Positions 2,548 to 62,500 of a stretch of DNA of 64,000 nucleotides are shown here, piece after piece; positions within the stretch are counted from its first letter, which is position 1, and each line of letters begins with the position of its first letter. The position numbers were made by a program, and so were the translations under genes. Below the pieces are notes generated by a model that was not told the DNA's origin, did no database searches, and worked only from the letters and a program-made list of their open reading frames with translations. The stretch is from Candidatus Thorarchaeota archaeon (lineage in GTDB: Archaea > Asgardarchaeota > Thorarchaeia > Thorarchaeales > Thorarchaeaceae): contig CP070761.1 in NCBI GenBank assembly GCA_020348985.1, positions 1,553,249 through 1,617,248 on the forward strand. The letters are read 5' to 3'.

Positions 2548-2594
2548 TGAACAATGATAAGAAAGGTCCCAACATACATGTTCAATCTTGAACA
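2548..2594 (-). promoter_or_regulatory. 47-bp operator/promoter element, copy 1 (upstream of aminotransferase-peptidase)
   Basis: Minus strand reads TGTTCA agat TGAACA tgta TGTTGG gacctttcttatcat TGTTCA; same spacing as four other copies. Confidence 0.8.
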
Positions 2595-2744: not shown

Positions 2745-2791
2745 TGTTCAGCGTTGAACATGTATGTTGGGACCCTTCATATCATTGTTCA
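2745..2791 (+). promoter_or_regulatory. 47-bp operator/promoter element, copy 2 (upstream of second M28 peptidase)
   Basis: TGTTCA gcgt TGAACA tgta TGTTGG gacccttcatatcat TGTTCA; 42/47 identical to the reverse complement of 2548..2594. Confidence 0.8.
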
Positions 2792-4677: not shown

Positions 4678-4724
4678 TGTTCATTCGTGTACACTGTTGT
4701 TGGGACTCTTATTATGGGTGTTCA
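4678..4724 (+). promoter_or_regulatory. 47-bp operator/promoter element, copy 3 (upstream of nitrilase-family gene)
   Basis: TGTTCA ttcg TGTACA ctgt TGTTGG gactcttattatggg TGTTCA; extra TGAACA at 4661..4666. Confidence 0.8.
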
Positions 4725-5684: not shown

Positions 5685-6707
5685 ATGAGAAACCCCACTC
5701 AGCAATTCTCTACACCTCTTGGAGTATTGTTCACATTGATTCTAATTCTAATGATTCTTGTATTTCCGCAGCCCAGCACAGGTCAATCTGACCAGAGTGA
5801 CTTGACTGGTATTCAGGTGGCGTTGTATACAGGGGGTCCAACAAGTGAATCCAGCCGCGAATCTCTTTCCAGAATGTTCTCATGGATGAACGCAAGTGTC
5901 ACTGTTCTTTCAGGAAGCGCGATAAGGGAAGGTGAACTCGAGAATTTTGATCTAGTTGTCATTCCTGGAGGATATGCACCTGACTTTATAGACGACATAG
6001 GTGCACGAGGGCTTGACAAGATCAGAGATTTCACTAGTAATGGAGGATCTTTCATCGGAGTATGTGCAGGTGCATACTTCGCTTCAGATTACATAATATG
6101 GCAAGGTATACCGACCGAGTATCGACTAGACCTGTTTGATGGTGCTGCTGTTGGTGCCATTGATCAAATCGCCCCTTGGCCAAACTTCCAGATGTGTACA
6201 ATAAGCATCAACCGCAATTCAATTCGGATTGACCTCTCTTCAGAACCGGCTAACCACACGATCATGTATTTCGGGGGCCCTTATTTCCTGCCAAGTGACC
6301 CCAGTGAAATCGAGATTCTGGCAACTTATGATATCAATGATGAAGCAGCCATGATATCTTTCGAGTATGGTCAAGGTAGAGTGTTTCTATCAGGTCCTCA
6401 TCCTGAATGGGAAGAAGATTCAGACCGAGACAATGCTAGTTGGCCTGATGATTTTGACGACAATGGCTCTGAGTGGAACCTAATGCTTAGCGTGTCACTC
6501 TGGCTAACAGAGAATGTGAACAAACCAAGCATTACCGAATTTCAACTGCCACACCTAGTTGGAGTGGCTTTCTTGGTCGTGGGAGCCATCGGCACTGTCG
6601 CCATATTCATACATGTGTTGAGGAATCGTGTCGACTATAGGAATAAATTCTATCAAAGAGGTCCAGAAACGGCAGATTTGCTGATGTTCACCTTTGTCCA
6701 CTCATGA
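5685..6707 (+). CDS. Membrane-anchored BPL_N-like class I glutamine amidotransferase-fold hydrolase
   Basis: N-terminal hydrophobic signal, VIPGG, GVCAGAY (nucleophile Cys), GPHPE, C-terminal TM. Start set at ATG 5685; the ORF track opens at 5667. Confidence 0.8.
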   Translation: MRNPTQQFSTPLGVLFTLILILMILVFPQPSTGQSDQSDLTGIQVALYTGGPTSESSRESLSRMFSWMNASVTVLSGSAIREGELENFDLVVIPGGYAPDFIDDIGARGLDKIRDFTSNGGSFIGVCAGAYFASDYIIWQGIPTEYRLDLFDGAAVGAIDQIAPWPNFQMCTISINRNSIRIDLSSEPANHTIMYFGGPYFLPSDPSEIEILATYDINDEAAMISFEYGQGRVFLSGPHPEWEEDSDRDNASWPDDFDDNGSEWNLMLSVSLWLTENVNKPSITEFQLPHLVGVAFLVVGAIGTVAIFIHVLRNRVDYRNKFYQRGPETADLLMFTFVHS

Positions 6708-6741
6708 ACAAAGATGTTGGTCGCATTTTAATCGTTGTACA
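6685..6741 (+). promoter_or_regulatory. 47-bp operator/promoter element, copy 4 (6695..6741) plus one extra upstream hexamer; upstream of the ABC operon
   Basis: TGTTCA cctt TGTCCA ctca TGAACA aaga TGTTGG tcgcattttaatcgt TGTACA; 10-bp hexamer period and the same 25-bp spacer to the last hexamer. Confidence 0.75.
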
Positions 6742-13524: not shown

Positions 13525-14658
13525 CTACTTGCTGGGGTACTTGCGTCCAACCTCTCGCGCTTTCGTGAAATGCAATACTGCCGATGCCACACCCTCTTCC
13601 CTGGATATCTCCTCTATCTTTTCGAGGGCTAGGAGTGATCTGAGTAATTTCATGGAAAGGTCCTTCATAGGAGCCGTCCTACTTCTGATTTGAACACGCA
13701 TCATATCTCCGTCGGCAGAGACATTGGACCATTCCCAAAGCCCTAGTGTTCCAATCACTGAGACTGTGCGGTCTACTAGATTGGAGACACTAGACGTGTC
13801 CTTCTCACCATTGATGACGTCGAGTTGTTGTGCATGCTCTCTGATGCTAACAAGCGTCTTGTCACTAATCGGATCCTCTATCGTGTTGGTGACAAGCCAA
13901 TCTAGAAGAGAAGGACTTAGTGTGACGACACCTCGATGACCTGTCTGTGAAGAAAGCCGCTCTCTTCGGTCTCGCCACAACGTGATGACACGTCTGTCTC
14001 TTTCAATCTTCACCTGATTGTACTCATTCTGGTGGATCCACGTGACACTTATCTTGTTGTCAGCTACGATCTCTACATCAAAAGTGAACCCAGCTTCCTC
14101 CCATCCTGCAATCAGCATTATGACAAGTAGCTCAGGTAGCCCCTGAAACATACCTGTTGTGAGGAGAAGTCTCTTCCTCTCGGATGAACATTCAACTGAC
14201 CTAAGGACTCCAACATCTCTAAGGAAGTTCGCATTGGCAACAAGCGATTCGTAATTGTTCTCCCAGAACTCCTCTGGAATTACACCCACACTCATGAGCA
14301 GCTTGGTTTGCTCAATCCCAATCTTCTTGGCCTCCAATGTTAAGTCTCTAACGGAATGGGTGCCTAGACCGCAGCCAGCGCACAGCGATAATAGATTTGA
14401 GCTGACTAGTATCATGTCAGCGGATTGAATGAGGGAATTGTGTAGGCGTGATGTCTTGATGGCATCGCACTCTTCACAATTGGGGAGATCTCTTCTTGTG
14501 CTGTAATGCTTCACAGCTTCTTCAAGAACATCATTGATGCGTCTCGAGTCACTTGAGAGTTCCTTCAAAAGATTCTTGGTGCTGGCGGAGACTGTAGTAT
14601 GTAGATGCACTCTCGGTTCACGAGACCCATTATAGTCATGTGAGTCCATAACATCCAT
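13525..14658 (-). CDS. Putative transcriptional regulator: N-terminal ribbon-helix-helix-like domain, CxxC, two repeated putative sensor domains
   Basis: RVHLHTTV-SASTKNLLKELS-RRINDVLEEAVKHY fits a beta-alpha-alpha RHH pattern. Start set at ATG 14658 (14649 is an alternative) because the upstream ORF extension overlaps motif hexamers. Confidence 0.6.
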   Translation of the reverse strand: MDVMDSHDYNGSREPRVHLHTTVSASTKNLLKELSSDSRRINDVLEEAVKHYSTRRDLPNCEECDAIKTSRLHNSLIQSADMILVSSNLLSLCAGCGLGTHSVRDLTLEAKKIGIEQTKLLMSVGVIPEEFWENNYESLVANANFLRDVGVLRSVECSSERKRLLLTTGMFQGLPELLVIMLIAGWEEAGFTFDVEIVADNKISVTWIHQNEYNQVKIERDRRVITLWRDRRERLSSQTGHRGVVTLSPSLLDWLVTNTIEDPISDKTLVSIREHAQQLDVINGEKDTSSVSNLVDRTVSVIGTLGLWEWSNVSADGDMMRVQIRSRTAPMKDLSMKLLRSLLALEKIEEISREEGVASAVLHFTKAREVGRKYPSK

Positions 14659-14797
14659 GAACAAACCCACCGGTTCGTGTTCAAGACATCTATTCCAGTT
14701 ATAGATTCGTGAACATAAGCATTCCGAAGCAGTGAGGTTTGTTGAATCTTTGAACAAGGTCATGACGAAGTGTCTTTCTCATGTGCACCCTTGTTCA
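14658..14797 (-). promoter_or_regulatory. Cluster of TGWWCA-type hexamers upstream of the candidate regulator
   Basis: Hexamers start at 14658, 14678, 14710, 14751, 14782 (TGTGCA) and 14792. 14710/14751/14792 are 41 bp apart, the first-to-last hexamer spacing of the 47-bp element. Confidence 0.6.
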
Positions 14798-17372: not shown

Positions 17373-18752
17373 TTAATAGAGGAATCTCACACCGAGGTCC
17401 GCAACCTCTTGCTTCACTCTTTCATATATCTCGTAGCACTCCTTTGAAGGTCTACCGGTCACAGGATCACAGCACTCTTGGAACGTTTTGCCCCTTGGTG
17501 GGTCACCAACCCTGTCAGCAAATCTCGGGATGATTCTCTTTACAATCTCGTTTGCATCATCCCTTGTGATACCAGCAGACGCGTAGGCAACCTCCGAGGC
17601 GAACATTGGCTCAATTGGTGTCAGATAATCTGTGTACTTCCCTCTGGCAACGCCTCCGGTCTCAATTGACCCTCCTGAAGATATTCCGCCAATGAATTCT
17701 GCAGCAAACTCGTAAAGCACCATCTCGGTACAGGGGCCCGCAGCAGTGTAGTTGTAATATAGCGCTGGCACCTGTGTATTCCTTGACACAGCCTGCAGGT
17801 ATTGGCTGGCCACCCAGATTAGCTCTGGTGTGGAACTTGAGGTATACTTGAGGTGGATCGGGAAGCACAGTGTCCAGGATGCGCCAAGGGTCATTATTGC
17901 CATTATGTGAAAAGCCGTGGACGTGATTGCTGTTCCTTCTGCTCCCCCTGCAAAGCCACCATAGATGGGACCATGAATCCCTGCGATTGGAACATTCAGT
18001 GATTGTAGAAGTGCTGCACGATTCAGCAAATCAAAATCTGTCTTTAGCTCAGCAAGCTGAGCAATCATGTATCCGTCTGTCTTCCGTAGTCCAAAATCGG
18101 GATGCAAACCTGAAGCAAGGGCGATAGCGGACTCTGCGGTCCCAATAGCATTCATGATGGGTAGTCCAGGTCGCCCAGCTCTTCTCAAAGCCTCCCGCCC
18201 CAGAACCACAGTTCGTATACTACCCTCGATTTCGAGTGGTGATTTCGCACGAATGCTCATATCGCCGACATTAGCCAGGCAGGGAGTGGTAATCGCGTTT
18301 GCAATCGGTATCAGTTCTGCATAGTTTTGAACAAGTTTCATGAACACGTTCTCACTAGACACAGTTACCCCCCCGGCCCCTGCGAAAATCCATGGTTTCT
18401 CCTTTGACTCTGGCTTCCTTGGTAGCAGAGTTCGTTGTTCCATACCCTCGCCCAGAAGTGCATGGTCAAAGGATGTGTTGATGCTGTCACGAACCTCCTT
18501 CTCTGTGAACGAGATTACTCGTTCAGTGTCCTTGTTGAATACTCCGATCTCGACGATAAGGTCAAAAGCTGCTTTGAATACTGAATCTGCTAGCCCGTCA
18601 TCAGAGGAAATCACGATGTTAGGATCGTACGTGACATCATATTCTTTAACAAGCTCTTGGACTCGCGGAGCAAAGATTCGCAAATCGTAGTCCTTTTCCA
18701 AGCAGGGCTTTCCTTCAAGAGACCTTCGAGTAATCTCCAGTATGTTCAGCAT
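17373..18752 (-). CDS. mtmB: Monomethylamine methyltransferase MtmB family, pyrrolysine-free homolog
   Basis: DDGLADSVFKA, DTERVISF, AGRPG, ELKTD, PIYGGFAGG, AGPCTEM, GKTFQECCD; uninterrupted 459-aa ORF. Confidence 0.88.
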   Translation of the reverse strand: MLNILEITRRSLEGKPCLEKDYDLRIFAPRVQELVKEYDVTYDPNIVISSDDGLADSVFKAAFDLIVEIGVFNKDTERVISFTEKEVRDSINTSFDHALLGEGMEQRTLLPRKPESKEKPWIFAGAGGVTVSSENVFMKLVQNYAELIPIANAITTPCLANVGDMSIRAKSPLEIEGSIRTVVLGREALRRAGRPGLPIMNAIGTAESAIALASGLHPDFGLRKTDGYMIAQLAELKTDFDLLNRAALLQSLNVPIAGIHGPIYGGFAGGAEGTAITSTAFHIMAIMTLGASWTLCFPIHLKYTSSSTPELIWVASQYLQAVSRNTQVPALYYNYTAAGPCTEMVLYEFAAEFIGGISSGGSIETGGVARGKYTDYLTPIEPMFASEVAYASAGITRDDANEIVKRIIPRFADRVGDPPRGKTFQECCDPVTGRPSKECYEIYERVKQEVADLGVRFLY

Positions 18753-19443: not shown

Positions 19444-19490
19444 TGAACAGACACAAAAGCACTCCCAACACCTGTGAACACTCTTGAACA
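19444..19490 (-). promoter_or_regulatory. 47-bp operator/promoter element, copy 5 (upstream of the methyltransferase operon)
   Basis: Minus strand reads TGTTCA agag TGTTCA cagg TGTTGG gagtgcttttgtgtc TGTTCA. Confidence 0.8.
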
Positions 19491-21723: not shown

Positions 21724-23697
21724 ATGAGAATGGCTGACTCTGTTTCATCAATTCTGTCGCGTAGAACCCAGGAAGGAGAAACCTACGAGCCTATAGGCAG
21801 ACTAGCAGGCATTGGTTCTCTACTTGGAATACTTGCAGCAGCAATTGGGCTGCTGATGAGTGCTGGAACGTCATTGCTTCCAATCCCGTCCATTGGCGCA
21901 CTGATTCTGAGGAACCCCGATCACTACTTTTGGTCAGCAGTGTTCATGGGTGTGCTGGGAGTAAGTGCCTTGTTGCAGGCTTTTGGGTCTAAAGGTCTCA
22001 GAAAATACTTGGACTCAGGATATACGAACATTCTGTTTGCAATTGCAGGGATAGCTCTGGTGACAGCCATCTTCGCAGTACTAGGCGGAATTACACTGTA
22101 TCGGCCACGCCAAGTAGTAGACTATGTCGTAAATCTGATGTCATTGGGAGCCTTCTTTGCGATTACGTGGCAACTGATTTCAATCACTTATGTTGATTCA
22201 ACCGATTCGTGGATAGGATTCCTCGCAGGCATTCTTAATGCTATGTTCGTCCCATTTCTGGCACTTGGACAAGGGCTCAGCTCAACATTCACTTTCCTGG
22301 CGTACTTCGTTCTGTTGCTGGGACAACTATTTGCTCTACTATTCTGGTGGTCGCCAATGAGTATTGTCAGAGAATATGCTCGAAGCACGTCAAAGGCAAA
22401 GTTCGCCTTTGGTTTGGCGGGGCTTTTCTCATTCTTGTATGCTATTGTCCCGATTCTGATAGGACCGTTGTCGATCATAGAGGGCAGTGAAGTCTGGACG
22501 CCTTGGAGCACGATGCTCGACGAAACGCTGTTTGTCACTGACCCTGTCCTTATCTTCGGCCTAATGTCGGTCATGCTATTTTGGGTCATGCTCGGACCAC
22601 GTCTTGGTGCGAGAGAACTCAAGGTCGCACATGTTGGTGAAGACATAGTCAAAGGTGGCCCAAAGTGGTTTATGGCACTCCTTGCTATGATCGGCATTTT
22701 CGCGGCATCTCAGGCAGGGTCCATGGTGGCTGCCGTTGTGCCTAGCTATGGGCTGGCTCTCGCATTGAGTCCTGCTGCGGTTACGTTCATGATGGGCGCC
22801 ATATATGCAGGGCGAACAGACATCATAACCGGACTTCCTCTGGTTGTGCTCGGAGTGATGTTCTTGGTGCATCCGAATGTGCTGTCCATGTTCGTCATTG
22901 TCCCGCTCGTGCTTGTGATAATCACACAAGTCTTCTTGACCGTTGAAACCAGAATCAGAGGCTTCACCGGATTCTCACAGGGAGCTTTGACAGTCATTGC
23001 CACCGTCATCGCATCGGGAATCTTCATCCTATTCCTTTTGGGCGGGTTTGGAAGTGGGCCTGCGGCTATGTGGCCTGTTAACAGATGGTACCCAGTCGCT
23101 TTGATTCCTGGGATCTCTGTTCAAGTTCAGATGGCTACTATTATCACCTTGCCCTTCCTTGCACTGCTGATACGGAATGTATCTCTGGTTGGCTATGCCC
23201 ATGGTCGAGGAATGGCGGGGTCTGACTCCCTGGGTGCTATGAGCATTCTATTTGCTTTTCTGATTCCCATGATTGGTGATCCGACTGCCACTGTTACACA
23301 CAAGGCACTGACCGCGGCATCAATCCTGCTAGCACTCTATGCCATCAGTTTCGTGCTTGTTTTATCCCTGAATCTAAACCTTGCAGGTGAGGTAGAGGAC
23401 ACGGGCAACCCTTACGAAGGGATGTTGATCAGAATGTCTGCTATTGTGGGTATTGCGTTTGGTTCGATTGTTGCCATAATCACAATGGCCACATTCTCTC
23501 AGTTCTACGTACGGCCGGCTGACGCAGCACTTGTGATTACACTACTTGTAACGCTAGTCGTTGGACTAGAGGTTCTTGGTCTGGCTACCTGGCTCATTAC
23601 GGGTGTAAGACTAGGAATGCTGAGAAGCGGCTGGAAGTACGTTTCCGCCGAGGAAGCAGCACGAAGGGCAGAGATGATAGTACCACTGGCAGAATAG
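21724..23697 (+). CDS. Large polytopic membrane protein, unknown function
   Basis: 657-aa ORF that is almost entirely hydrophobic helices. Confidence 0.8.
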   Translation: MRMADSVSSILSRRTQEGETYEPIGRLAGIGSLLGILAAAIGLLMSAGTSLLPIPSIGALILRNPDHYFWSAVFMGVLGVSALLQAFGSKGLRKYLDSGYTNILFAIAGIALVTAIFAVLGGITLYRPRQVVDYVVNLMSLGAFFAITWQLISITYVDSTDSWIGFLAGILNAMFVPFLALGQGLSSTFTFLAYFVLLLGQLFALLFWWSPMSIVREYARSTSKAKFAFGLAGLFSFLYAIVPILIGPLSIIEGSEVWTPWSTMLDETLFVTDPVLIFGLMSVMLFWVMLGPRLGARELKVAHVGEDIVKGGPKWFMALLAMIGIFAASQAGSMVAAVVPSYGLALALSPAAVTFMMGAIYAGRTDIITGLPLVVLGVMFLVHPNVLSMFVIVPLVLVIITQVFLTVETRIRGFTGFSQGALTVIATVIASGIFILFLLGGFGSGPAAMWPVNRWYPVALIPGISVQVQMATIITLPFLALLIRNVSLVGYAHGRGMAGSDSLGAMSILFAFLIPMIGDPTATVTHKALTAASILLALYAISFVLVLSLNLNLAGEVEDTGNPYEGMLIRMSAIVGIAFGSIVAIITMATFSQFYVRPADAALVITLLVTLVVGLEVLGLATWLITGVRLGMLRSGWKYVSAEEAARRAEMIVPLAE

Positions 23698-25371: not shown

Positions 25372-26289
25372 ATGTCAACAAAGGACTTGTTTACGAAGTA
25401 CACTCAGCTGTACCAGAAGGGGCGTGCTAGAGAGATTGTTCCTGAAGGACCCTTCGTACGTCAACTCACCGACGTTCCAAGGCAAGGACTCGACCTTGCG
25501 CTCTTCTTCAAGGCAAAGAGAGTGAAGAACACAAGGCAGATTCACATCGGCGACCCAGTACCACCCGTAGTTGCCAGAGAAGAGGGTTTCTTGGAAACAG
25601 ATGATAATACCTTCCTCAGCCGGACACTATTGTCAGAATTCAGGACGGTGGATTATCTCAAGGCAGTGATATCGGCTGGCAAAAGACTTGAGGAGACCCG
25701 CGAGAGAGTCCAGTTTCTCAAAACCTGTCAAAGGATTATCGATGTTCTCCTCAGAAAAGCAAGAAACGTGGTGCACCTGGGCGATTTCGAGCCTTTTAGA
25801 TTTGACAGGCGTGTGTTTACCATAGAGGAGTACCTGAGCAAGAGAACCAAACTCGACAAGGTGGCAATTGAAGCCGCTTCAATCTCCTTTCATGTAGCTG
25901 AGCCCGACTACATTCTGATGCCTACTGGGGAGATCATAGTCTTCAACGACACATATAGCGTGCCTCATGGTGTGTTCTACTTTGCAGGTGGAATAGGATA
26001 CACATTCGACCAAGCCGAGGGTGCCGCTAGCGAGGAAAGGGTCTTCAGGTCTCAAGAAGACCTGAGTCTGCACGGAATTGACAGCGCTTACCTTGAGGGC
26101 ATGATGCTCAGTGTAACTGAGGATTTCCAGACCAGAGTTCACTCCATAATCTATGCAGATGTATGGAAGAAGGTCAAGTCACGTCCTATCGGAGTTAACT
26201 TTGGAGAGCAACTTCTCATTAAGGCAGACCCTGGTAGCGAGATTTGGATGGGTGTATTCGAGATATACCTCGCCCCGCCTAGAACATGA
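25372..26289 (+). CDS. Hypothetical protein
   Basis: 305-aa ORF with ATG start; no recognisable motif. Confidence 0.7.
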   Translation: MSTKDLFTKYTQLYQKGRAREIVPEGPFVRQLTDVPRQGLDLALFFKAKRVKNTRQIHIGDPVPPVVAREEGFLETDDNTFLSRTLLSEFRTVDYLKAVISAGKRLEETRERVQFLKTCQRIIDVLLRKARNVVHLGDFEPFRFDRRVFTIEEYLSKRTKLDKVAIEAASISFHVAEPDYILMPTGEIIVFNDTYSVPHGVFYFAGGIGYTFDQAEGAASEERVFRSQEDLSLHGIDSAYLEGMMLSVTEDFQTRVHSIIYADVWKKVKSRPIGVNFGEQLLIKADPGSEIWMGVFEIYLAPPRT

Positions 26290-27868
26290 TGGGGTCAAAG
26301 GCATCGATAGCAATTAGGACTGCTCTGAAAGCATAGATTCTGAACGTGTAGGTAATCGGAACATCGCTATGATTCTCAAGTAACGAGATTAATTCATCTA
26401 TTGAGCCGTCGCCAAAACCCGACACGAGTCCTGGTAGAGACTCGATTGTAATATTTTGAACCCCGTTGCCGCTGGCAATCATTATGTCTCCTGCAAGCTG
26501 AGCCAATGTTGTGTAGACAAGGTTCAGCCTTCCAAAGACATCAGTTATGTTTCCAGCCTGAGCAATGCGCATTTCCCAAGTGCCTTCAAGCCCACCTATT
26601 GTCGAAGAATAGGAATGTACAAGGTATTCTCCGACATCGCCGTCCATTTCATGAGAGAAGAACGAGCGACTGCATCGTACCTGTATGGTGTCCCATAGAG
26701 ACAAGCTCTCAACAGTTAGGGCATTTGACTTCATGAAGATCGTGTCAAGGTCTTGATAGTCATCAAGAATGAATGGATCTACGAGAATCCCTGTAGTGAA
26801 CCCGAACGATTCGGCTGATTCAGCGAGAAGCTCGGATTCATACAGAATAACTGAATCATCGATTGAATCGAAGGTGTTTCTCATGAGTCCCGAGAACCCT
26901 GCGATGTTGATTTGCCGAGCTTGACTCATCAAGTACTGCCATTCATTCAGGGACAGAGTCATGTCATATAGAACCCTGTGGGAGATTTGTGATCTATTGC
27001 ATTCGTCAATGACTGCATGTAGAACCTCTGTTGAGTTTTTCAACTCGTCAAAGACATCTTGAATCAGAAGTGTGGTTCCCAGATTCGCAGAATCAGCTTC
27101 TACGATATGCGGACGACTGGGTGACAGGACAATTGTGCAGGGAATTTGGGAATCATTGAGAACTGAGAACCAATCGGTAAGACGGAGCCAAGCCGCAGAC
27201 TCGGCCACATTCAGTCTGAAGCTCAAACCAAGGCTGTTGTTTGAGACCGATTTCACTATCTCAGTGGTAGGGCTGAATTCAGTGTATGGAAACTCAAAGT
27301 CAGACAAGGGTACATCAAGTGTGATTTCCGGGATGGCTCCTGGATGCGCAGATGCGATTGGAGTCTGACCCATTATGACTATAGAAATCGGAAAGAGAAG
27401 CCCAATTACGTTCAGAAAGATGAGCCAGGCTACTCCCTTCCGACCAAGTTCTCTCTTTGACCCTGGGATCCTGAAACGGCCGACTATAACTACAATCGCG
27501 CCGCAAAAAGCGTTGGCTAGCAGAACAATTATGAACCCTCTGACCAATGATGACAGTACGCCTAGAATGAGCACTGAAATGAGCATTATTATGAAAGGGA
27601 ATATTGCCGCGCGTTTCTCATTATAGCCCCTTAGAAGAATGGGTATGATGACAATCAATGGGATCACATATAGGGCCAACGGAAGAGATTCTAGAAATCC
27701 ATTCCGAGCGAGAGTCATTCGCACACTAATCGAAATCACGGTATATATGATAAGAAGCACGTCGAATAGAAGCACGGACAAAACAAACCGATGTAATAGC
27801 AAATCCAGTCTTCGGTCTGATTCTATACGAATTCTTGCGGATTCACGTGATGATTGTATCAGCTCCAT
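26279..27868 (-). CDS. Membrane protein with about 5 N-terminal TMs and a large extracytoplasmic domain
   Basis: 529-aa ORF; hydrophobic N-terminal third, acidic remainder with N-x-S/T sequons. Confidence 0.75.
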   Translation of the reverse strand: MELIQSSRESARIRIESDRRLDLLLHRFVLSVLLFDVLLIIYTVISISVRMTLARNGFLESLPLALYVIPLIVIIPILLRGYNEKRAAIFPFIIMLISVLILGVLSSLVRGFIIVLLANAFCGAIVVIVGRFRIPGSKRELGRKGVAWLIFLNVIGLLFPISIVIMGQTPIASAHPGAIPEITLDVPLSDFEFPYTEFSPTTEIVKSVSNNSLGLSFRLNVAESAAWLRLTDWFSVLNDSQIPCTIVLSPSRPHIVEADSANLGTTLLIQDVFDELKNSTEVLHAVIDECNRSQISHRVLYDMTLSLNEWQYLMSQARQINIAGFSGLMRNTFDSIDDSVILYESELLAESAESFGFTTGILVDPFILDDYQDLDTIFMKSNALTVESLSLWDTIQVRCSRSFFSHEMDGDVGEYLVHSYSSTIGGLEGTWEMRIAQAGNITDVFGRLNLVYTTLAQLAGDIMIASGNGVQNITIESLPGLVSGFGDGSIDELISLLENHSDVPITYTFRIYAFRAVLIAIDAFDPIMF

Positions 27869-52910: not shown

Positions 52911-55900
52911 TCATGAGCTGTCCAGCAACTGGTCGACGATGTCCATCCTCATCTTGTATCCAGGTTTCCGCTTCTTCCTCCCGACCACAACAATGACTGC
53001 GACGAATCCTATACCTCCAAGCAGAAGCGCAAGCATGAAGTAGTCAGGCGGAGCAACGTCGATTGCGATTAGCTGGCCAGAAACTCCGAACAGCGAAAGG
53101 TGAGTGACTTGTGCCCATATACAGCCTGCATAACTCTCACCATATATCTCAACATTTGTGGTGTTCTGACCGAGTGAGATTACCCAGTCCAGGTCCTCTG
53201 AGAGCTTGATCCATTGTTCATCTTCAGTATCGTAGTAGTAGATGCTCAATGAGGTTTCGTTTATGTCGCCCAAGTCACCTAGCTGTCCATCATTAGTAAG
53301 GTCAAGGTCAGAGACTCTGTAATAGATTTGAATCAGAGCAGACTCGAAGACATCTTGAGCTGTATCGTATAGAGTGATAGTCACATCCAGATACTTGTGC
53401 AAGGACACTTCACCCTCAACTAGACCCGTGGAATATACCAACTCGTGTGGTGTTGTGGATGCATCATACTTCACTATCTGAACACTTGGTCTAGCAAGTC
53501 CACTTAGTTGGACCAAGAGAGTAGCATCTAGTGTTTTTAGAGTGTCAATCTCGTTAATCAAGAAACTATAATGATACGTTTCATTATCAGTGATTACGGA
53601 CTTTTGATAGTCCAACGCTATCATATTGGGTAGTATCGTGAAGTTTCTACCTCTTAGGATTTGCAAAACTGAGTAGACATCCTCTGGGAATGCTTGAGAG
53701 AGCATTACTACTGTCTGGGGATTTGACCAAACACCATATCTCGTAGCTATCTCATGAGAATCGGGTTCCATCATATCGGTCAGAACACTGCCAGTATCAC
53801 CTAGAAGATCGTAGACCAATCCTCCTACTGTAGAACTCTCAGACTCCGGCCTGCCAATAAGGACAATGTATTGTGAGTCACTATAGAGCGAAGTTAGGTC
53901 ACCAATTGAAACAATGGTTACGTCTGCATAATCTCTGAGTTTTTCTGCAAACAGGATTGTGTCATTGTAGTCCTCTGGGTCATGTGCGAGAATTATCGGA
54001 CCCCTCCAGGGGCTAAATGTGTCAGGATCCTCATTATCAGGAACACCATCGAAATCTGAATCAACATTCCATGGATTGCTGCCCCATTCCAACTCGACAC
54101 CATCCAGAATACCATCCCCGTCTGTATCATTGTTCAATGCATCTAACCAATAGGCGACCTCAAGACTGTCTGATACGCCATCACTATCAGAATCACTGTT
54201 TAGGGGATTGGTGCCAATGAACCATTCATAACTGTCACTTAGTCCATCACTATCGCTATCTCCCCCTAGAGGATTCGTACTCCTGCTGTATTCATCTCCA
54301 TCCAGAGAAAGGTCACCATCAGAATCTGCATGAAGTAGACTAGTGTTGTACTGGTACTCTAAAGCATCACTTGCGCCATCATAGTCGCTGTCAGCGCTGA
54401 GAGGATTTGAATTAAGCAGAAACTCCTCTAAGTCTGATAGAGTATCAAAATCTGAATCCGCCATTGCTGGGTTACTCCCAAAGGTCATTTCTAACCCATC
54501 ACCCAGGCTGTCACCATCTGAATCCCAGAGTGTCAAGCTAGATCCAGATGATGATTGCATGTAAGAAGCACTTAGTGTCGATGGTGCGAGGTGCGGACTA
54601 AACGTAGGCGGGATATATGTTTCACCGGGATTGTTTGCTTTCCACCATTCTTGGTGGTCAGAAACGCCATCCAAATCTGTATCTGAAGTGCTAGGATTGG
54701 ACCCAAGTGAGAATTCAAGGAAATCATCCAGACCATCTAGGTCCGAGTCATTCATCAAATGGTTGCTGTGCACTCTGAAGGTTTCTTGTCCGTGAGTGAA
54801 GTTGACAGAGATAACCCAACCATCGATTTCCTGAATGTTTGTCAATCCATCGTTGTCCCAATCTGGATTCGTATCTAGTAGTAGTTCAGACGACAAAGTA
54901 ACATTTTGCGAGAACTTCCAAATCCTTGAGGTTGATGGAGTACCAAGATCAATCCAATCCAAGACATAGATACTCTTGTCAGGAGCTACCGCCAACTGAT
55001 GGGTCTCACTACCAAGAACATATGTTCCAGTTGTGAAATTCGTTATTCCATTTCCGTAGAACCGAAATGCAGTATCCTCAACTCCATTCGGATAGAATTT
55101 CTGGACACACATTCCATCTGAGAGTTCACCTAGAACATACACGTAACCATCTGAGTCCACATCGACATCAAGAATTGAAACGTAGTTCTCAGACAGTGTG
55201 CCTAGGAATGCGCCATCCGAGAGTCTCATCTTGATGACTCTATCCGGTTTACTATAGGAGAAATGCCTATCACATAGATAGACAATACCGTATTTCTCGT
55301 CTACTGCCATGCTTGTAATCCAATCAGTTTCATCATCTGCTGGACCTCTATTGCCATACGTCGCCAAAACAGAACCATCAGAGCCGTATTTTCGAAATCC
55401 ACCTATCTGGTCATCCCCTGTATCTCTCACTGCTGCATAGATAACTCCATCATCACCAAAATCAAGATCCGTTATGTTCTTGTTGAGTATTGGACTCCAG
55501 CTCCCAGGATTCGTTATTGTACCATTCAAGTTGAATCTGAAAATAGGACTGCTGAATAGCGGACTAACCTGAGTGTAAAGCCAGTCATTTGAGTCATCTA
55601 CAGCCATTGCCACAAGTCGAGCGCCAGAAGGTAGAAAGGTCATGTTGTTGAAGACTGACTCTTGTGGAAGAGTAACCCGCGTGAGATTTGAATCATACTT
55701 CCGAATTGTGTTGTTACCACTAACTGAGTCTAGTATTCCGTTTGCATATACATAGCCATACTCGTCCACACAAATGTCGCTTATCTTGTTGTTAGTTCCG
55801 TCCATTGTCCAGTCAACGAACTTGCCCTCATAGTATACTCCTGATCCGTACCAAACATATGCTGAATCAAGAATCCCATCTCCATTGGTGTCATTTGATC

Positions 55901-58900
55901 TTGGGTTCGTATTACTTTCGTACTCTGTAAAGTCATCAAGACCATCTCCATCTGTTTCATTAAGGAGCGGATTCGAAGTCACATGAGTGGAGAAGGGAAG
56001 AGAAGTATTACCCATGTAATCGAAGCTTATAATCCAACCAGTGATTTCTAGATAGTCGCTTAACCCATCTTGATCTGTATCGATATTATTTGGATCTGTG
56101 CCACAGACTAGTTCGAATTTGTCGTTCAACTTGTCATTGTCTGTATCGATACTTGCTGGATCAGTTCCAATTTCAATCTCATATTTATCATTGAGTCCAT
56201 CTGAGTCGGTGTCGTATCTCCATATGTTAGAGACTCCCATAGATGCTTCTCTGGTGTTGTTAAGTCCATCAACATCAAAGTCGTTCGCAATAAGACCCCA
56301 TTTGAGAAACTCGTCAAAGGAAGCAGGAAACACATCAAAGTAGATTTGAGTCAGGAAAGGGGAATACGCCGAGGAATAACTAGGAAGAACTGAGATAGTT
56401 GGATCATAATGCCAACAATCCCAAGTGTCGAGCCATTCGTGATACCAGACACTCCAAGTTTTGTAGAAGGAGTACAATCCGATTGTAACTGGGTAATTTG
56501 CCATAGCTATGGGTGCGCCAATGCTCTGAGTCTGAGACCACTCTTGTTGAATCCAAGCAGGATTACTTTGCGTAGCAGTCCCTAAATATGTCCAAATCGG
56601 ATCCAGATCTGGCCATGTCGGCATGTACGTCTGAATATTAGTTGTGTTGTGAGCAAAATTAAACGCCTGCCAATAGAAGTGATTTAGATCGCTAGTGGCA
56701 ATCCAAAAATGAGGCATGCACCAACTATCCAGAAAATACGTGTTGAGATATGTGCCATATGCACTTATTCGTCCTAGTAGTCTACATGTTAAGAGAATTC
56801 CGTCACCAGCCGTCAGACCATTGTTCTCGAAATCCATGAAGGTTGGATCTATGTCCAGAATTCTGCTAGACGGCCACATCGCAACAATTTGGTGAGGGCG
56901 TCCATAAATAGCGTTGATGAAGAACTCCTTGATTGCATCACTCACACCGATATTGTCCTTTCCACACCATCCTAGGATCTCATCGATCAACATGAAAATT
57001 CCAGCCAAACCAAACGTGAAGAACGTAGCCCAGGTGGTCAACAATGGTGCGATGATAACATCCCAAAGAAAGGTAACAATACCCCATATTGCTCCATACT
57101 CTTGTCCGCCGGCTCCACCGATAGCATCTGCGATTTCCCAAGCGGCCCAGATTGTTAATCCAAGAGCGATTGCAGCAACAACTATCTCAATAATAACATC
57201 GAATTTGCCAATCTTACTCACCCAACCTGACGCTTTGCTCGCACCTTTTGCCACCTTCGCCATTTGATGTAGAGTTCTCACTCTATGGAATTTCCTACCA
57301 GCTTCTGTGAATGAATCGAAAATGCGCTGCAAACCGCGGAAATAAGAAGGAACATCTGGCAGAAGCAAGAAGGACTCAATACCTAAATCCACCCATTGTC
57401 CAACATTTTGCGAGACGAATTCCATGTCTGATATTCGATCTATTGGGAATCCTCGTGGGGTTCCGTCGACTACTGTCGCACTCCGTTCAGTAGAAAACCA
57501 CATCAGCGTCATTGTGACTATCCAATACGTGACTTCATCATCTAGACCCCAACTAACAATATGGTCAACGATTTCAGTTATAGAAAGTGCTTCATAGCTG
57601 GTCGTGTTATAGTAATTCATCTTCAGTGTCTTCATGACGGATGGGGCAAGGCTTGTCAGATCTATACTACTGTGACCATCCGTTCCGAATGAAACACCTG
57701 ACATGTCTACAACTCTTGAATGGTCCTCAATAATCACAGTAATAGGAAGAATCATGTCCTGAGATATTGAACTCAATGCAGAGGGTAACATATCACTACC
57801 CAGCGAAGATAACGCGTCGAATTGAGATTGGAATGTCCTTACATCGCTTTCAACGGTTATATTGTTGTCCATGAGAAGTGGTTGCAGGTCTGAAACTGTG
57901 TTTGAAGAGTTTTTCATGTAATAATAGTCAAACAGCAATGAAGCTCCAATCGTCATGTCAGTATTTGTGCTATTATAGAAGATACCAATTTCTGAACTTG
58001 TGCTCTCTTCCAATTTAAGTCCAGTAAATTTGAACGGTTCAGTGTAGGTGACCAGTTCAATCAGATTAGGAATCGGCTCAAGAGACTCTATTTCAAAGAT
58101 AGATAATAGCGCAATATCAGGAGTTGAAACTAGATTGCCCCTTCCATCCATTGCAACGTAGTTCCCCAAATAATCGGTCAAATAGCATGCCGGCCACCAG
58201 GCAATCCTTTGGTTGAACGTTTCTCTCTCGCCGATTGTAGAGCTGTTGAAAAAGAGTGTACCATTGTCTGAAACTGATAGATAATTCCCATTAATCAGTT
58301 TTAGAGCAACCTCACTTTCTGATAGATAACACAACTGAAGAGCACCTTGAATTCCCTCACTAGCTGTAACTGATGCAACACCTTCGTTACCGACACTAAG
58401 ATACTTCCAATTCTGCCTGAACAAGAGAGCATTGGGGATGAAGTCTGTATAGCCATGAACGCTCCACACTAATTCGGTCTGGAATGTGACACTCGTTGAA
58501 GCTAGACCTGGGTAGTAAACAATACCACTGAATGCTACAACTTCGCCATTGTCAATTACTGGAGAAAGACGGAGCCGCATTCCAGAAGAGGTTGGGACGA
58601 TTCCTTGCTCTTGTAGAGCATCCTCACTTGGGATTGTGTCAGTAATAATCTCAAGATAGGGGATGAGGATTATGTCGTCTTTGGAATTGTCCAAGTCCGT
58701 CATTGTACTCTCGTTGTCCCAGTCTGGCCAATCCCAGGTCTGGTATAGTAACCTGAGATGCAATGGGTCCTCGGGTACAATCTGGAACTCCGCATAGAGC
58801 GGCATTGAGTTCGTGTTTACTACAATTGAAAACTTATCATTCACCTCTGAATACGCAAACGGTGAAACATCAAATGCATCGTTAACACCGTCGCCATCAT

Positions 58901-59408
58901 TGTCAAAGTCCCATCCATTCTTAATTCCATCATTGTCAGAATCCACATGTACTCCATCTGGAACGCCGTCACAGTCTGTATCAACTTCAAATGAATCACA
59001 AAGGCCATCATCATTTGAATCGGGATTGCGGGGGTCCAAGTCATTGTATACCTCAAAATCGTCAGTTAGGAGATCAACATCCGTATCATTGCTTTGTGGA
59101 TTAGTGCCTATGACAGCTTCAACAAGGTCAGGTAATGAATCTGCATCAGAATCGGTAAGATTAGCAGCCGGAGTGACCTCAAGCAATGATATTACAAGTT
59201 CTTTGAGAGAACCTGGCGTTCGAGGAGGATCACCTTCAGCGACCCTTCTTACAAGTTGATTTGGATTCGTGATTACAGGGGGAGAATCACGGGAATCCCG
59301 GACTGGAATGTATTGATTGTCTGTGGCCCGCTTGATATCACATCCAACGAACAAAAATATGAAAATCAAGCATGCAATGGCGAGCTTTAATCTTCTCAGG
59401 TCTCTCAC
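52911..59408 (-). CDS. Giant (2165 aa) single-pass surface protein: TSP3-like Ca-binding repeats, fascin-like trefoil segment, hydrophobic helical bundle, NHL-like propeller, GPS-like juxtamembrane domain
   Basis: Signal peptide; many DSDxDGLxDxxE...TNP repeats; GNYLSV...IGERETF; AVD/DVDSDGYVYV repeats; VTHLSLF; TM followed by RKKRK. Confidence 0.88.
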   Translation of the reverse strand: MRDLRRLKLAIACLIFIFLFVGCDIKRATDNQYIPVRDSRDSPPVITNPNQLVRRVAEGDPPRTPGSLKELVISLLEVTPAANLTDSDADSLPDLVEAVIGTNPQSNDTDVDLLTDDFEVYNDLDPRNPDSNDDGLCDSFEVDTDCDGVPDGVHVDSDNDGIKNGWDFDNDGDGVNDAFDVSPFAYSEVNDKFSIVVNTNSMPLYAEFQIVPEDPLHLRLLYQTWDWPDWDNESTMTDLDNSKDDIILIPYLEIITDTIPSEDALQEQGIVPTSSGMRLRLSPVIDNGEVVAFSGIVYYPGLASTSVTFQTELVWSVHGYTDFIPNALLFRQNWKYLSVGNEGVASVTASEGIQGALQLCYLSESEVALKLINGNYLSVSDNGTLFFNSSTIGERETFNQRIAWWPACYLTDYLGNYVAMDGRGNLVSTPDIALLSIFEIESLEPIPNLIELVTYTEPFKFTGLKLEESTSSEIGIFYNSTNTDMTIGASLLFDYYYMKNSSNTVSDLQPLLMDNNITVESDVRTFQSQFDALSSLGSDMLPSALSSISQDMILPITVIIEDHSRVVDMSGVSFGTDGHSSIDLTSLAPSVMKTLKMNYYNTTSYEALSITEIVDHIVSWGLDDEVTYWIVTMTLMWFSTERSATVVDGTPRGFPIDRISDMEFVSQNVGQWVDLGIESFLLLPDVPSYFRGLQRIFDSFTEAGRKFHRVRTLHQMAKVAKGASKASGWVSKIGKFDVIIEIVVAAIALGLTIWAAWEIADAIGGAGGQEYGAIWGIVTFLWDVIIAPLLTTWATFFTFGLAGIFMLIDEILGWCGKDNIGVSDAIKEFFINAIYGRPHQIVAMWPSSRILDIDPTFMDFENNGLTAGDGILLTCRLLGRISAYGTYLNTYFLDSWCMPHFWIATSDLNHFYWQAFNFAHNTTNIQTYMPTWPDLDPIWTYLGTATQSNPAWIQQEWSQTQSIGAPIAMANYPVTIGLYSFYKTWSVWYHEWLDTWDCWHYDPTISVLPSYSSAYSPFLTQIYFDVFPASFDEFLKWGLIANDFDVDGLNNTREASMGVSNIWRYDTDSDGLNDKYEIEIGTDPASIDTDNDKLNDKFELVCGTDPNNIDTDQDGLSDYLEITGWIISFDYMGNTSLPFSTHVTSNPLLNETDGDGLDDFTEYESNTNPRSNDTNGDGILDSAYVWYGSGVYYEGKFVDWTMDGTNNKISDICVDEYGYVYANGILDSVSGNNTIRKYDSNLTRVTLPQESVFNNMTFLPSGARLVAMAVDDSNDWLYTQVSPLFSSPIFRFNLNGTITNPGSWSPILNKNITDLDFGDDGVIYAAVRDTGDDQIGGFRKYGSDGSVLATYGNRGPADDETDWITSMAVDEKYGIVYLCDRHFSYSKPDRVIKMRLSDGAFLGTLSENYVSILDVDVDSDGYVYVLGELSDGMCVQKFYPNGVEDTAFRFYGNGITNFTTGTYVLGSETHQLAVAPDKSIYVLDWIDLGTPSTSRIWKFSQNVTLSSELLLDTNPDWDNDGLTNIQEIDGWVISVNFTHGQETFRVHSNHLMNDSDLDGLDDFLEFSLGSNPSTSDTDLDGVSDHQEWWKANNPGETYIPPTFSPHLAPSTLSASYMQSSSGSSLTLWDSDGDSLGDGLEMTFGSNPAMADSDFDTLSDLEEFLLNSNPLSADSDYDGASDALEYQYNTSLLHADSDGDLSLDGDEYSRSTNPLGGDSDSDGLSDSYEWFIGTNPLNSDSDSDGVSDSLEVAYWLDALNNDTDGDGILDGVELEWGSNPWNVDSDFDGVPDNEDPDTFSPWRGPIILAHDPEDYNDTILFAEKLRDYADVTIVSIGDLTSLYSDSQYIVLIGRPESESSTVGGLVYDLLGDTGSVLTDMMEPDSHEIATRYGVWSNPQTVVMLSQAFPEDVYSVLQILRGRNFTILPNMIALDYQKSVITDNETYHYSFLINEIDTLKTLDATLLVQLSGLARPSVQIVKYDASTTPHELVYSTGLVEGEVSLHKYLDVTITLYDTAQDVFESALIQIYYRVSDLDLTNDGQLGDLGDINETSLSIYYYDTEDEQWIKLSEDLDWVISLGQNTTNVEIYGESYAGCIWAQVTHLSLFGVSGQLIAIDVAPPDYFMLALLLGGIGFVAVIVVVGRKKRKPGYKMRMDIVDQLLDSS

Positions 59409-59508
59409 CTACTATTTTCCATGAGTGAAAAGGGAACCACGCGAACGAGATGCGAGTAGCACCGCATCTTAAATCATCTTCGAATTTTTCAGCCATGCAG
59501 TGATGAGG

Positions 59509-62500
59509 TCATGAGCTGTCGAGCAGTTGGTCGACGATGTCCATCTTGACCTTACGTCCAATCGTTCGACCCTTCCTTCTCCTTGCTACCGCAACCACCG
59601 CTGCTAGTCCTGCCGCTCCAAATAGCAGCACATACAAAAGGTAATTAGGCGGCTCCACTGGGATTCCGATTAGCTGTCCTGCAACTGCGAATAGCGAGAG
59701 ATGCGTTACTCGCGCCCAGACGAATCCTGCATATCTTTCTCCATAGAGCTCCACGTTTGTCGTGTTCTGGCCAAGGTCGACGACCCAGTCCAAGTCCTCT
59801 GAGAGCTTGATCCATTCACCAGCTGATGTATCATAGTAATACAGGCAAAGTGAGGTCTCATTTATGTCTCCCATGTCACCCAATTGGCTATCACCAGTGA
59901 GGTCAATGTCGGACTCTCTGTAGTAGATTATGATCCATGCGGAATCGAACACGTTGAAAGCCGTATCATACAGAGTCAGACCAACATCCAAATACCTGCC
60001 TAGAGATACATCGTTTTCTGCCAGACCCGTTGCATGTGTCAGCTGATTCGGAGTTGTGGTCTCATTGTATCGGCTGATTGCTATTGCAGGTCGGGCTCGC
60101 CCGCTAAGTACGATGATCACTGACGCATCCGTTGCCTTGACCGTGTCAATTTCGTTGACAAGGGCGGCGTATGCTACGGTCTGATTATCAACTACTGCGT
60201 AGGAGTTGAATTCTATCATGGTTCGATCAGACAGGATCGATAAATTCCATCCTCTCAGTATGGTGAGAACTGGATACACATCTGTGGAAAAGGCAGAGGA
60301 CATGATGACAACTGTCTGTGGATCGTTCCAGTAGCCATATCTTGTTGCCACCTCGTGGGAGTTGTTCTCCATCATATCATCAAGAACGCTACCCGTGTCA
60401 TCAAGCATGTCGTACGTAAGCCGTTCGAGACCGTAGCTGCTCGGATCAGGCCGACCTACGAGCACAATGTACTGGTGATCTGTATAGCCGTCAAGAAACT
60501 CCTGGAGTGTGACTACGGTTACGTCGACGTGCTCGCTCAATTCTTGCACAAACTCGAGCGTGTGGGTTGTCGGATCTTCACCATAGACCAGAATGACTTG
60601 GCCATCCCATGTAGTGAATGTGTCAGGGTCGATGCTATCGGGGATGCCATCCCAGTCCGTATCGTTGCTTAGTGGATTGCTACCGTATTGCAATTCAAGC
60701 CCGTCTGGAATTCCGTCGAAATCTGTATCGTTGTTCAGCGGGTCCAGGAACAATGAAAGCTCCACGTCGTCATCAGCGCCATCTCCATCTGAATCAGCCA
60801 ACGTTGGATTCAATGACAAGAATAATTCAAACCCGTCTAGAAGATTATCTCCGTCGCTATCACCTTCACTCACATTGCTTCCCACGTGGTACTCCGTACC
60901 ATCAAGACCGAGATCGCCATCTGAGTCCGGGTCAAGAAGGCTCGAGTTGCCATCGAATTCCTGACCGTCCAGAGCTCCATCTCCATCAGAGTCGTTGCTT
61001 CTCGGATTAGAATTCAGCAAGAACTCGGTCATATCTGAAAGACCATCTGCGTCAGAGTCAGGATTGACAGGAGAACTGCCGTAAGTGAGCTCAATGCTAT
61101 CGCTAAGCAAGTCTCCGTCTGTATCCCACATGGTCAGATTGGGTCCAGCCGGAGTCCATTGCATGTGGTTCGAATAGATTGAAGAAGAAACGACGAAGGC
61201 ACTCTGAATCGGTGGAACATAGATTTCGCCTGGATGTGTTGTCAGCCACCACTCTTCGAAATCGGACACACCATCTTCGTCAGTATCGGGAGAACGAGGA
61301 TTAGATCCCAGTGTAAACTCCAGAGTATCGTTGAGTCCGTCGCAATCAGTGTCTTTCACCATCGGATCACTTGTGACATTGAAGGTTGTTCTTGCGCTAG
61401 CGAAGTCAACCGTGATTTCCCAACCGTCCGTCTCCTGAATGTTGGTTAATCCGTCATCATCCCAGTCTGGATCGTTTTCGGGTATCACTTCTGAAGAATA
61501 CTGGAAATTCTGCGAGAATCTCCAAATCCTTGATGTCGAGGGGTCTCCGGCACTGAGAAACGCGATAACGTAAATACTCCCGTCGGGCGATGTGCATAAC
61601 CTATTTGCACCAGTGAGAGTGTGCGTGCCATTTCCATTGAATCGGAAATCCACATCTTCGAAGCCGCCAGGGGCATATCTTCTGACATGAGATCCGAGAG
61701 TAGAATCGGAAGACATCGCATACAGATATCCACTATCATCAACCTCCAAATCTTGCATGTAGACACTGTATCCAAACTCTAGGATATTGACGTGGGACCC
61801 ATCAGACATGTCCAATACATGCAGCCTGAAACCCTTAGAATATGATATTTCCTGGTCAAACACGTAGATGAGTCCATGCATCTCGTCTACTGCAATACCC
61901 CAAGGACTATCAAACTCCTCTGTGCCCGGACCGACTACGCCCCAAGAATTCAGGAGGGCTCCGCTTGAGTTATACTTCTTGACAATCGGAGTACTATATC
62001 CCAAATGATAGATATCCCCATTCTGACCGATAACAAATTGCTCTCCGCTAGCGGTGGAGATTGGAGTCCAGGAATCAGGGTTGATTGCTGAACCGTCCAA
62101 GTTGAACCTGTAGAGTGCATTGGTTGTAGAATACGCCTTGTGAATGTACATCCAATCATTGCTATCGTCAATACCAATGTACACAGGCATTTCGGAATTT
62201 GACCAGCACGTCAAGTTGACAAGATATGAACCGGTCGGCTGTTCAATAATGTTAAAGGATGGGTCATACTTTCTTACTGTTCCATTGTCGTTGGGCAATC
62301 CAAGGAATCCTGATGCATACAGATATCCGTCTTCATCAGTACAGACGTCATACACATACTGCTGATGATGAGCAGTATAGTCAGGCATTATCCAGTCGAT
62401 TGAGCCTTCATAGGCCGCAGTTGCGCTCATTCTGTAAGCTGGCATGTCCGGATACCCATCGCCGTTAGTATCATTCGAGTTGGGGTTTGTGTTGCCAAGG

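Follow-up and report, generated by a model that had tools for sequence, protein, structure and literature searches.

A putative self-regulating transcription factor with a ribbon-helix-helix-like module at an amine/peptide catabolic gene island of a Thorarchaeota archaeon

Results

Gene island and putative regulator gene

A stretch of 64,000 nucleotides from a Candidatus Thorarchaeota archaeon (GenBank assembly GCA_020348985.1, contig CP070761.1, positions 1,553,249 to 1,617,248; called the window in the following, with coordinates counted from its first letter) was analysed for a 19-kb amine/peptide catabolic gene island of this Asgard (Thor-type) archaeon and for a candidate regulator gene within it. 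The minus-strand gene run that ends with the regulator gene encodes an aldehyde:ferredoxin oxidoreductase, a corrinoid protein, an MtmB homologue, an MtrH-like methyltransferase and a RACo-type activator. Tail-to-tail with the regulator gene lies a plus-strand run encoding an M28 peptidase, a CN-hydrolase, a GATase-like protein, a family-5 solute-binding protein, a fused permease and two ATPases, and a class-III aminotransferase gene is oriented divergently at the far end of the island. Pfam detected no DNA-binding domain in the other conserved island genes (scanned products: open reading frames (ORFs) of at least 150 aa).

The MtmB homologue (17373-18752, minus strand, 459 aa) is encoded without an in-frame stop codon and shows 70-80% identity across genera, compared to 42-63% for the regulator. 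MtqB, which acts on tetramethylammonium and choline, is so far the only MtmB of demonstrated function that does not contain pyrrolysine (PMC13044021).

The minus-strand frame of the regulator gene is open over 13525-14763 and extends 35 codons N-terminal of the start defined by homologues. The ATG at 14658-14656 matches the start position of 27 out of 27 homologues, all named ones of which originate from metagenome-assembled genomes (MAGs) of Thorarchaeota/Promethearchaeota, and 15 of 16 related loci have a TGTTC-ATG/GTG motif whose in-frame end serves as the start codon. Therefore the gene was assigned to 13525..14658 (minus strand), with a product (P0002) of 377 aa followed by a stop codon. 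The extension to 14763 was rejected as coding sequence on the basis of the homologue starts and the promoter alignment, and the 137 bp separating the regulator start from the RACo/RamA stop codon (14795) are non-coding.

Hexamer boxes in the island and upstream of the putative regulator gene

The 3.16-Mb genome contains four copies of the architecture TGTTCA-N4-TGWWCA-N25-TGTTCA, all of them within 17 kb of the regulator gene and each directed at a transcription unit. Between the second and the last box of this 47-bp element come a third box, TGTTGG or TGTTGC, spaced at the 10-bp period, and then a T/A-rich, TATA-like segment; from the TGTTGG box to the last box the distance is 21 bp. A genome-wide pattern search located the element before the class-III aminotransferase gene (2548..2594, minus strand) and before the CN-hydrolase/GATase-like/ABC transporter genes (4678..4724, plus strand). 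A further copy precedes the M28 peptidase gene (2745..2791, plus strand), and conserved pairs about 1.9 kb apart are found in other genomes. The copy preceding the operon for the corrinoid protein, MtmB-like protein, MtrH and RACo (19444..19490, minus strand) is kept in 14/14 related loci that have the corrinoid gene, with invariant boxes and variable spacers. Before the solute-binding protein gene a degenerate fifth element (6685..6741, plus strand) consists of TGTTCA, TGTCCA, TGAACA and TGTTGG at a 10-bp period, an AT-rich segment and TGTACA.

A first-pass annotation made from the sequence alone had noted six TGWWCA-type hexamers in the 140 bp upstream of the regulator gene, three of them at a 41-bp spacing, and this was borne out. 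On the minus strand TGAACA, TGCACA, TGTTCA, TGTTCA, TGAACA and TGTTCA begin at 14797, 14787, 14756, 14715, 14683 and 14663, respectively. The TGCACA at 14787 is a degenerate box, counted as the sixth, the other five are strict TGTTCA/TGAACA boxes, and the steps from 14797 to 14756 and on to 14715 both measure 41 bp. A cluster of five strict boxes in 140 bp exists once in the 3.16-Mb genome, where it is the densest of its kind, versus about 0.011 expected under a Poisson model. The pattern TGWWCA-N35-TGWWCA has six matches in the window versus 0.18 expected.

It is the proximal triple at 0/32/52 (14715, 14683, 14663), not the 41-bp series, that is phylogenetically conserved. The regulator's own promoters from 16 loci of five other genera share the layout CTTA-TGTTCA-N25-TGAACA-N15-TGTTC-ATG, although the proteins are just 42-63% identical. 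Box 1 (TGTTCA after CTTA; 14710..14715, minus strand) lies in a column block TTA-TGTTCA-C that is invariant in the 16 aligned promoters, and box 2 (TGAACA; 14678..14683, minus strand) follows it after 31-32 bp in all loci. The last base of box 3 (TGTTCA; 14658..14663, minus strand) is the A of the start codon, and TGTTC(A/G)TG in frame with RVHLHTT is present in the window and in 15 of the 16 related loci. A GAGGTGA-type ribosome site is located between the last two boxes in these 16 loci. The boxes cover the start codon and the region in which transcription is predicted to start. Their start-to-start spacing of 20-21 bp recurs in own promoters of Thorarchaeia and Bathyarchaeia (see below) and agrees with the two sites about two helical turns apart that characterise NikR-type operators.

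The distal boxes form a degenerate copy of the 47-bp element (14751..14797, minus strand; boxes at 0, 10 and 41), which lacks the TGTTGG third box and is particular to the gene order of the window genome. The first three bases of its TGAACA box (14795-14797) double as the TGA stop codon of the RACo-type activator gene. In other genomes the regulator gene is a separate convergent unit with neither RACo nor MtrH alongside; therefore the gene order has been rearranged in the window genome.

Co-occurrence of gene and element in Thorarchaeia

A total of 87 Thorarchaeia genomes were compared, with a reversed-pattern control run alongside. The regulator protein is present in 19 and the element in 21 of them; 18 genomes have both, 65 neither, three the motif only and one a gene fragment only, while the control gave 0 matches in every one of the 87 genomes. 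The co-occurrence that the first-pass annotation had proposed as a check was thus found, and the genomes with both gene and element belong to five genera. The relatedness of the genomes makes the Fisher p value of 1e-14 an overstatement. The three motif-only genomes (G028, G070 and G072; MAGs of 85, 62 and 87% completeness) carry peptidase/hydrolase-type copies of the element only, as expected if the contig with the regulator gene was lost from an incomplete MAG.

The gene-only genome (G002) lacks both the island and the 47-bp element and contains a 147-aa open frame with the N-terminal module and CxxC part alone (L107; G002:C123:1518-1694), which may be a remnant or a short paralogue. Two database fragments (P0037, P0044) look like similar decayed copies.

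In 15 of the 16 loci from five other genera the regulator gene adjoins the corrinoid/MtmB-like pair, usually in convergent orientation and after Opp-type ABC genes; in the sixteenth (L024) it adjoins ABC genes only. The short 16-bp pattern TGTTCA-N4-TGWWCA was found at about control level in those of the 87 genomes that lack the gene. These counts give no sign of a hidden wider regulon, and the short pattern is uninformative alone.

Relatives in Bathyarchaeia

An exhaustive search revealed distant relatives that share (V/I)HLHTTI(T/S), GSCxxC and domain 1 of the regulator (see below), the largest group being a 643-648-aa protein of Bathyarchaeia. At the 48 Bathyarchaeia loci examined (genome assemblies) TGAACA was present upstream in 48/48 and TGTACA in 47/48. 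The two boxes form a pair with N14/15 spacing, the second box abutting a canonical TTTAAAAG TATA box. A second pair, with one box on either side of a TATA-like TTTCTATAT, precedes the adjacent glutamate dehydrogenase (GDH)-like gene in 29 of the 43 loci with enough upstream sequence, and the 20-21 bp spacing across TATA is again observed at this promoter. A representative locus shows TGWACA-N14/15-TGAACA pairs at the TATA of both promoters (L051:4067-4093 and L051:5933-5958). In essentially all loci (L048-L102) a gene for a 588-aa long-form Glu/Leu/Phe/Val dehydrogenase precedes the regulator gene.

The Bathyarchaeia pairs suggest that a member of this regulator family controls a small regulon of its own there. 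Across phyla the same hexamer family goes with the same beta-strand, with the regulated genes differing, and this sequence correlation is the strongest argument that the protein itself would read the boxes.

A short subfamily (P0043) keeps the N-terminal module and domain 1 and lacks the CxxC. A search starting from P0043 yielded a small family that Pfam does not connect to RHH_1, and a profile search returned only close relatives among the top 120 matches listed.

Domain structure of the putative regulator

The N-terminal beta-alpha-alpha pattern followed by CEEC, as described in the first-pass annotation, is present in the form RVHLHTT(V/I)S, helix, GxxGRIN, helix. Residues R16, H18, L19, H20, T21 and T22 of the strand are invariant among the 27 homologues, as are the cysteines C61 and C64. 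We designate residues 14-56 (14491..14619, minus strand; strand RVHLHTTVS, helix A, GxxGRIN turn, helix B) as a predicted ribbon-helix-helix (RHH)-like DNA-binding module. The CxxC (14467..14478, minus strand) lies at the junction to domain 1 and is also nearly invariant in the wider family including Bathyarchaeia. Domain 1 (residues 62-215; 14014..14475, minus strand) is a Bet3/TRAPPC3/V4R/H-NOX-like two-layer alpha/beta domain according to structure comparison of the model, and domain 2 (residues 249-367; 13558..13914, minus strand) consists of helices and a beta-beta-alpha-beta-beta plait.

The full-length AlphaFold2 (AF2) model (pLDDT, the predicted local distance difference test, 75.8) is extended over residues 16-22 and helical over 25-34 and 41-54, and thereby has the strand-helix-turn-helix order of about 45 residues known from the RHH superfamily. 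Structural neighbours of residues 12-62 in the Atlas are CopG/RHH_1, Antitox_RHH and VapB proteins (template modelling (TM) score 0.55-0.68). When 41 family N-termini were aligned to 21 Asgard RHH_1 domains by hhalign, 46 columns in register covered strand, helix A, turn and helix B (P 3e-4, probability 40%) with enriched profiles; a thinner alignment covered helix B only (probability 7%). Some sources label the Bathyarchaeia relatives as RelB/DinJ antitoxin, an RHH class. Searches of Pfam, NCBIfam and PHROGs with the whole protein and the N-terminus returned nothing significant, with sub-threshold hints to the BfmA N-terminus (E 0.011) and an Arc-like repressor (E 0.055) in NCBIfam and PHROGs. 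Thus the RHH assignment of the first-pass annotation agrees with the residue pattern, the Atlas neighbours and the profile-profile alignment, but RHH_1 itself gives no match. Judged by these three lines, residues 14-56 may adopt an RHH fold, in which R16, H18, H20 and T22 would face the DNA, invariant residues matching invariant boxes.

The two similar alpha/beta units that had been noted C-terminal of CEEC correspond to two blocks of the AF2 model (residues 80-207 and 249-366), which are connected by a long helix (210-238) and have an identical order of elements, namely three helices, two strands, a helix and two strands. Their profiles show no detectable similarity, however (hhalign E 0.3, 19 columns aligned), and a tandem duplication, considered as a candidate, cannot be claimed from the sequence.

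In the model, four helices and a four-stranded sheet give domain 1 a two-layer fold like that of the V4R/Bet3-TRAPPC3/H-NOX class. VIA-align superposed it on TRAPPC3/Bet3 structures with Z 7.4-8.4 over 122-146 residues (root mean square deviation (rmsd) 3.4-4.5 Å, identity 12-14%), the best superpositions reaching Z 8.2-8.4 with 139-144 residues aligned, and on H-NOX with Z 7.7; in a wide structure search it scored Z 6.3-7.4. The Foldseek comparison advised in the first-pass annotation lists the Thorarchaeota TRAPPC3 structure 7yh3 for domain 1 (probability 0.93), but nothing at E<=0.001 for the whole model. Atlas neighbours of domain 1 are HNOB and archaeal proteins of about 190-200 aa with RHH_1 plus the same predicted domain. 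None of the 27 members matches any Pfam family even at E<5, including V4R (PF02830) and HNOB. A four-cysteine zinc site of the PoxR/Thor-TRAPPC3 type is absent from the 27 homologues; the only cysteine positions invariant among them are C61 and C64, both at the N-terminal border of domain 1.

Domain 2 best matches generic ferredoxin-like plaits (Z 9-10 over 76-94 residues), which also dominate the wide VIA list. NikR is not among the structural matches listed for this ferredoxin-like plait. Hence, of the V4R/Bet3-like fold tentatively assigned to both units, the part concerning domain 1 stands as a model-based resemblance, and for domain 2 the matches listed are generic plaits.

Other open reading frames in the window

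Beside the island, ORFs of 657, 305 and 529 aa (21724-23697, plus strand; 25372-26289, plus strand; 26279-27868, minus strand) have no Pfam match. At 52911-63984 (minus strand) two adjacent ORFs of 2165 aa and >1491 aa have many short repeats in common, rich in CCATC..CCATC..GA.TC with 66-bp periods. Their 3′ ends are near-identical (70 nt at 76% identity), and by sequence they look like paralogous giant repeat proteins.

Discussion

Judged from sequence, the unannotated 377-aa protein is very probably a dedicated, self-regulating transcription factor of the island. The first-pass annotation had proposed a regulator of the locus, and this gained support from the restriction of the element to this locus, the co-occurrence in the genome comparison, the conserved element before the corrinoid gene, the own-promoter boxes of the related loci and the boxes of the Bathyarchaeia relatives. 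One box is always found past the TATA-like segment, and the own-promoter boxes lie over the start region and the start codon. Both are positions typical of repression; therefore ligand-relieved repression and autorepression are proposed. We consider it likely that the gene product is a one-component transcription factor dedicated to the catabolic island and working by this mechanism.

N-terminal RHH dimers would each read one TG(T/A)(T/A)CA hexamer via the strand R-V-H-L-H-T-T, and the near-palindromic TG-WW-CA box would suit one two-fold symmetric dimer. The C-terminal domains could join the dimers into a higher oligomer, which would allow several boxes on one face of the DNA to be occupied jointly; the box periods of 10 bp, and of 20-21 bp across the TATA-like segment, would set the dimers on the same face. 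Occupancy would bracket the TATA box and the transcription factor B recognition element (BRE) of five promoters (aminotransferase, M28 peptidase, CN-hydrolase/ABC importer, solute-binding protein and corrinoid/MtmB-like operon) and would also cover the regulator's own promoter, its start codon and the region of transcription initiation. By default these promoters would then be repressed, that of the regulator itself included. A small molecule related to the imported substrate, e.g. a methylated amine or an amino-acid derivative, may bind to domain 1 and alter the spacing or the oligomeric state of the RHH feet, whereupon the DNA would be released. The CxxC, paired across the dimer, would most likely form a four-cysteine metal site locking the hinge between RHH module and sensor.

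Several results weigh against this proposal. A search of the own genome with Pfam RHH_1 (PF01402) at E<=10 scored 48 candidates, and the regulator gene is not among the eight matches listed. PDB sequence searches with whole-family and N-terminal profiles were empty at E<=10. The AF2 model of residues 8-69 alone is one long helix (predicted TM score (pTM) 0.34) and was discarded. The fold scores of domain 1 are middling (Z about 8 at the rmsd given above), and the domain has no conserved cysteines where V4R and Thor-TRAPPC3 proteins bind zinc (PMC10933270). Moreover, the co-occurrence cannot separate the regulator from the rest of the island since they travel together, and boxes upstream of TATA could equally serve activation.

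The last point leads to an alternative in which the same protein reads the same boxes as a ligand-dependent activator or dual regulator; from the two or three boxes upstream of the TATA-like segment it would recruit or stabilise TBP/TFB on weak promoters instead of blocking them. Boxes upstream of a TATA-like segment are the layout seen for archaeal activators, and three boxes of the 47-bp element precede a TATA-like segment that is weak and non-canonical; moreover, the island promoters lack the canonical TTTAAAAG box of the Bathyarchaeia promoters. On the other hand, one box is always directly downstream of the TATA-like segment, the own-promoter boxes lie over the start codon and the region where transcription is predicted to start, and the Bathyarchaeia boxes abut or bracket the TATA box, all positions typical of repression. 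We regard activation as unlikely.

As a second alternative, the regulator might sense redox state or a metal rather than a pathway substrate, via a disulfide, zinc or an Fe–S cluster bound by the CxxC across the dimer. The invariance of the CxxC in Thorarchaeia and its near invariance in the wider family would fit, as would the oxygen-sensitive corrinoid chemistry and the RACo reductive activator encoded by the regulated operon. In MsvR, a regulator with helix-turn-helix (HTH) and V4R domains, DNA binding is switched by cysteines (PMC3729527). However, the short P0043 proteins have the RHH module and domain 1 but no CxxC, the regulon comprises uptake and catabolic genes, which are usually substrate-induced, and two large domains of sensor type would be left without a role, which makes this explanation quite unlikely.

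Very unlikely, finally, is that another factor encoded elsewhere reads the hexamers and that the protein is an accessory of the corrinoid methyltransferase system that does not bind DNA, e.g. a cofactor, metal or redox helper: the tight linkage to the corrinoid/MtmB-like pair and the failure of curated RHH models to match the protein would fit, but conserved boxes overlap the own start codon in two phyla, the Bathyarchaeia relatives keep the same boxes next to a GDH-like gene instead of methyltransferase genes, the 65 genomes that have neither gene nor motif do not contain the full element, the short 16-bp pattern stays at control level in genomes without the gene, and the profile-profile match to RHH_1 spans the whole domain.

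Beyond the island, the data somewhat favour the existence of an undescribed regulator family with the order RHH - CxxC - Bet3/V4R/H-NOX-like sensor, which would span Thorarchaeia and Bathyarchaeia and read TG(T/A)(T/A)CA pairs bracketing TATA, with the protein described here as its founding example. A full-text literature search joining ribbon-helix-helix and V4R retrieved one census paper only, and no description of such an architecture was found. To our knowledge, the control of transcription of individual genes has hardly been described in Asgard archaea, most of which resist cultivation. At this locus, regulator, operator grammar, regulon and autoregulation can all be read from the sequence. 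The regulon holds a pyrrolysine-free MtmB homologue, and the effector of the regulator would point directly to the methyl-donor substrate of this protein. If the proposal is correct, small-molecule sensing in transcription control would be the first concrete cellular role of a Bet3/TRAPPC3-like domain in Asgard archaea. The Bet3/TRAPPC3 fold was later recruited to vesicle tethering in eukaryotes, whose TRAPP subunits are thought to derive from this fold class. A ligand-sensing role in an Asgard archaeon, if true, bears on their history.

Comparison with known systems

The protein fails the sequence definitions of both RHH_1 and V4R, and comparisons are based on architecture and predicted structure. 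With the short RHH proteins CopG, Arc, MetJ, archaeal CdrS and viral SvtR/AvtR it shares the alternating-polar strand and the Gly-x-Ser/Thr/Asn-type turn before helix B, as well as short tandem or inverted boxes, cooperative binding of several dimers and autoregulation, the latter features being predicted here. These repressors comprise 45-100 aa and have no sensor domain or use a small corepressor (MetJ), whereas the regulator has about 310 aa of putative sensor domains and no RHH_1 match. The archaeal "CopG-like" proteins of about 190-200 aa, mostly from Methanobacteriota, likewise combine RHH and a putative sensor domain, 70-96% of their members having an N-terminal RHH_1; their Atlas models, compared as predicted models only, align to residues 76-210 with TM 0.63-0.64. 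Unlike the regulator they have no second domain.

Domain 1 superposes on Thorarchaeota TRAPPC3 (7yh3) and eukaryotic Bet3/TRAPPC3. In contrast to these it is fused to a predicted DNA-binding module and lacks the four-cysteine zinc site, and nothing points to trafficking. Ligand binding has been proposed for Asgard TRAPP/V4R proteins by the authors of 7yh3 (PMC10933270). A fold of the V4R/Bet3/H-NOX class as input domain of a transcription factor is also known from MsvR, which is autoregulated and cysteine-dependent (PMC3729527), and from regulators of the PoxR/XylR/DmpR type; all of these couple a V4R sensor to a DNA-binding or AAA+ module. The regulator differs from both in its RHH-like instead of HTH module, the missing Pfam V4R match and the lack of conserved cysteines inside the domain.

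NikR consists of an RHH domain and a C-terminal ACT-like domain and binds as a tetramer to two half-sites about two helical turns apart. Similarly, the regulator is predicted to have an N-terminal RHH-type module followed by ligand-binding, oligomerising alpha/beta domains, its boxes are 20-21 bp apart on one DNA face, and it would repress an uptake locus in response to a metabolite or a metal. It differs from NikR in that neither a sequence match nor a listed fold match connects the two, in its putative sensor, a Bet3/H-NOX-like domain plus a second plait instead of a single ACT domain, and in the extra boxes at a 10-bp period within an archaeal TATA-dependent promoter. By analogy, NikR appears to be nearest in working principle, and MsvR and PoxR, both V4R regulators, appear to be nearest in sensor fold.

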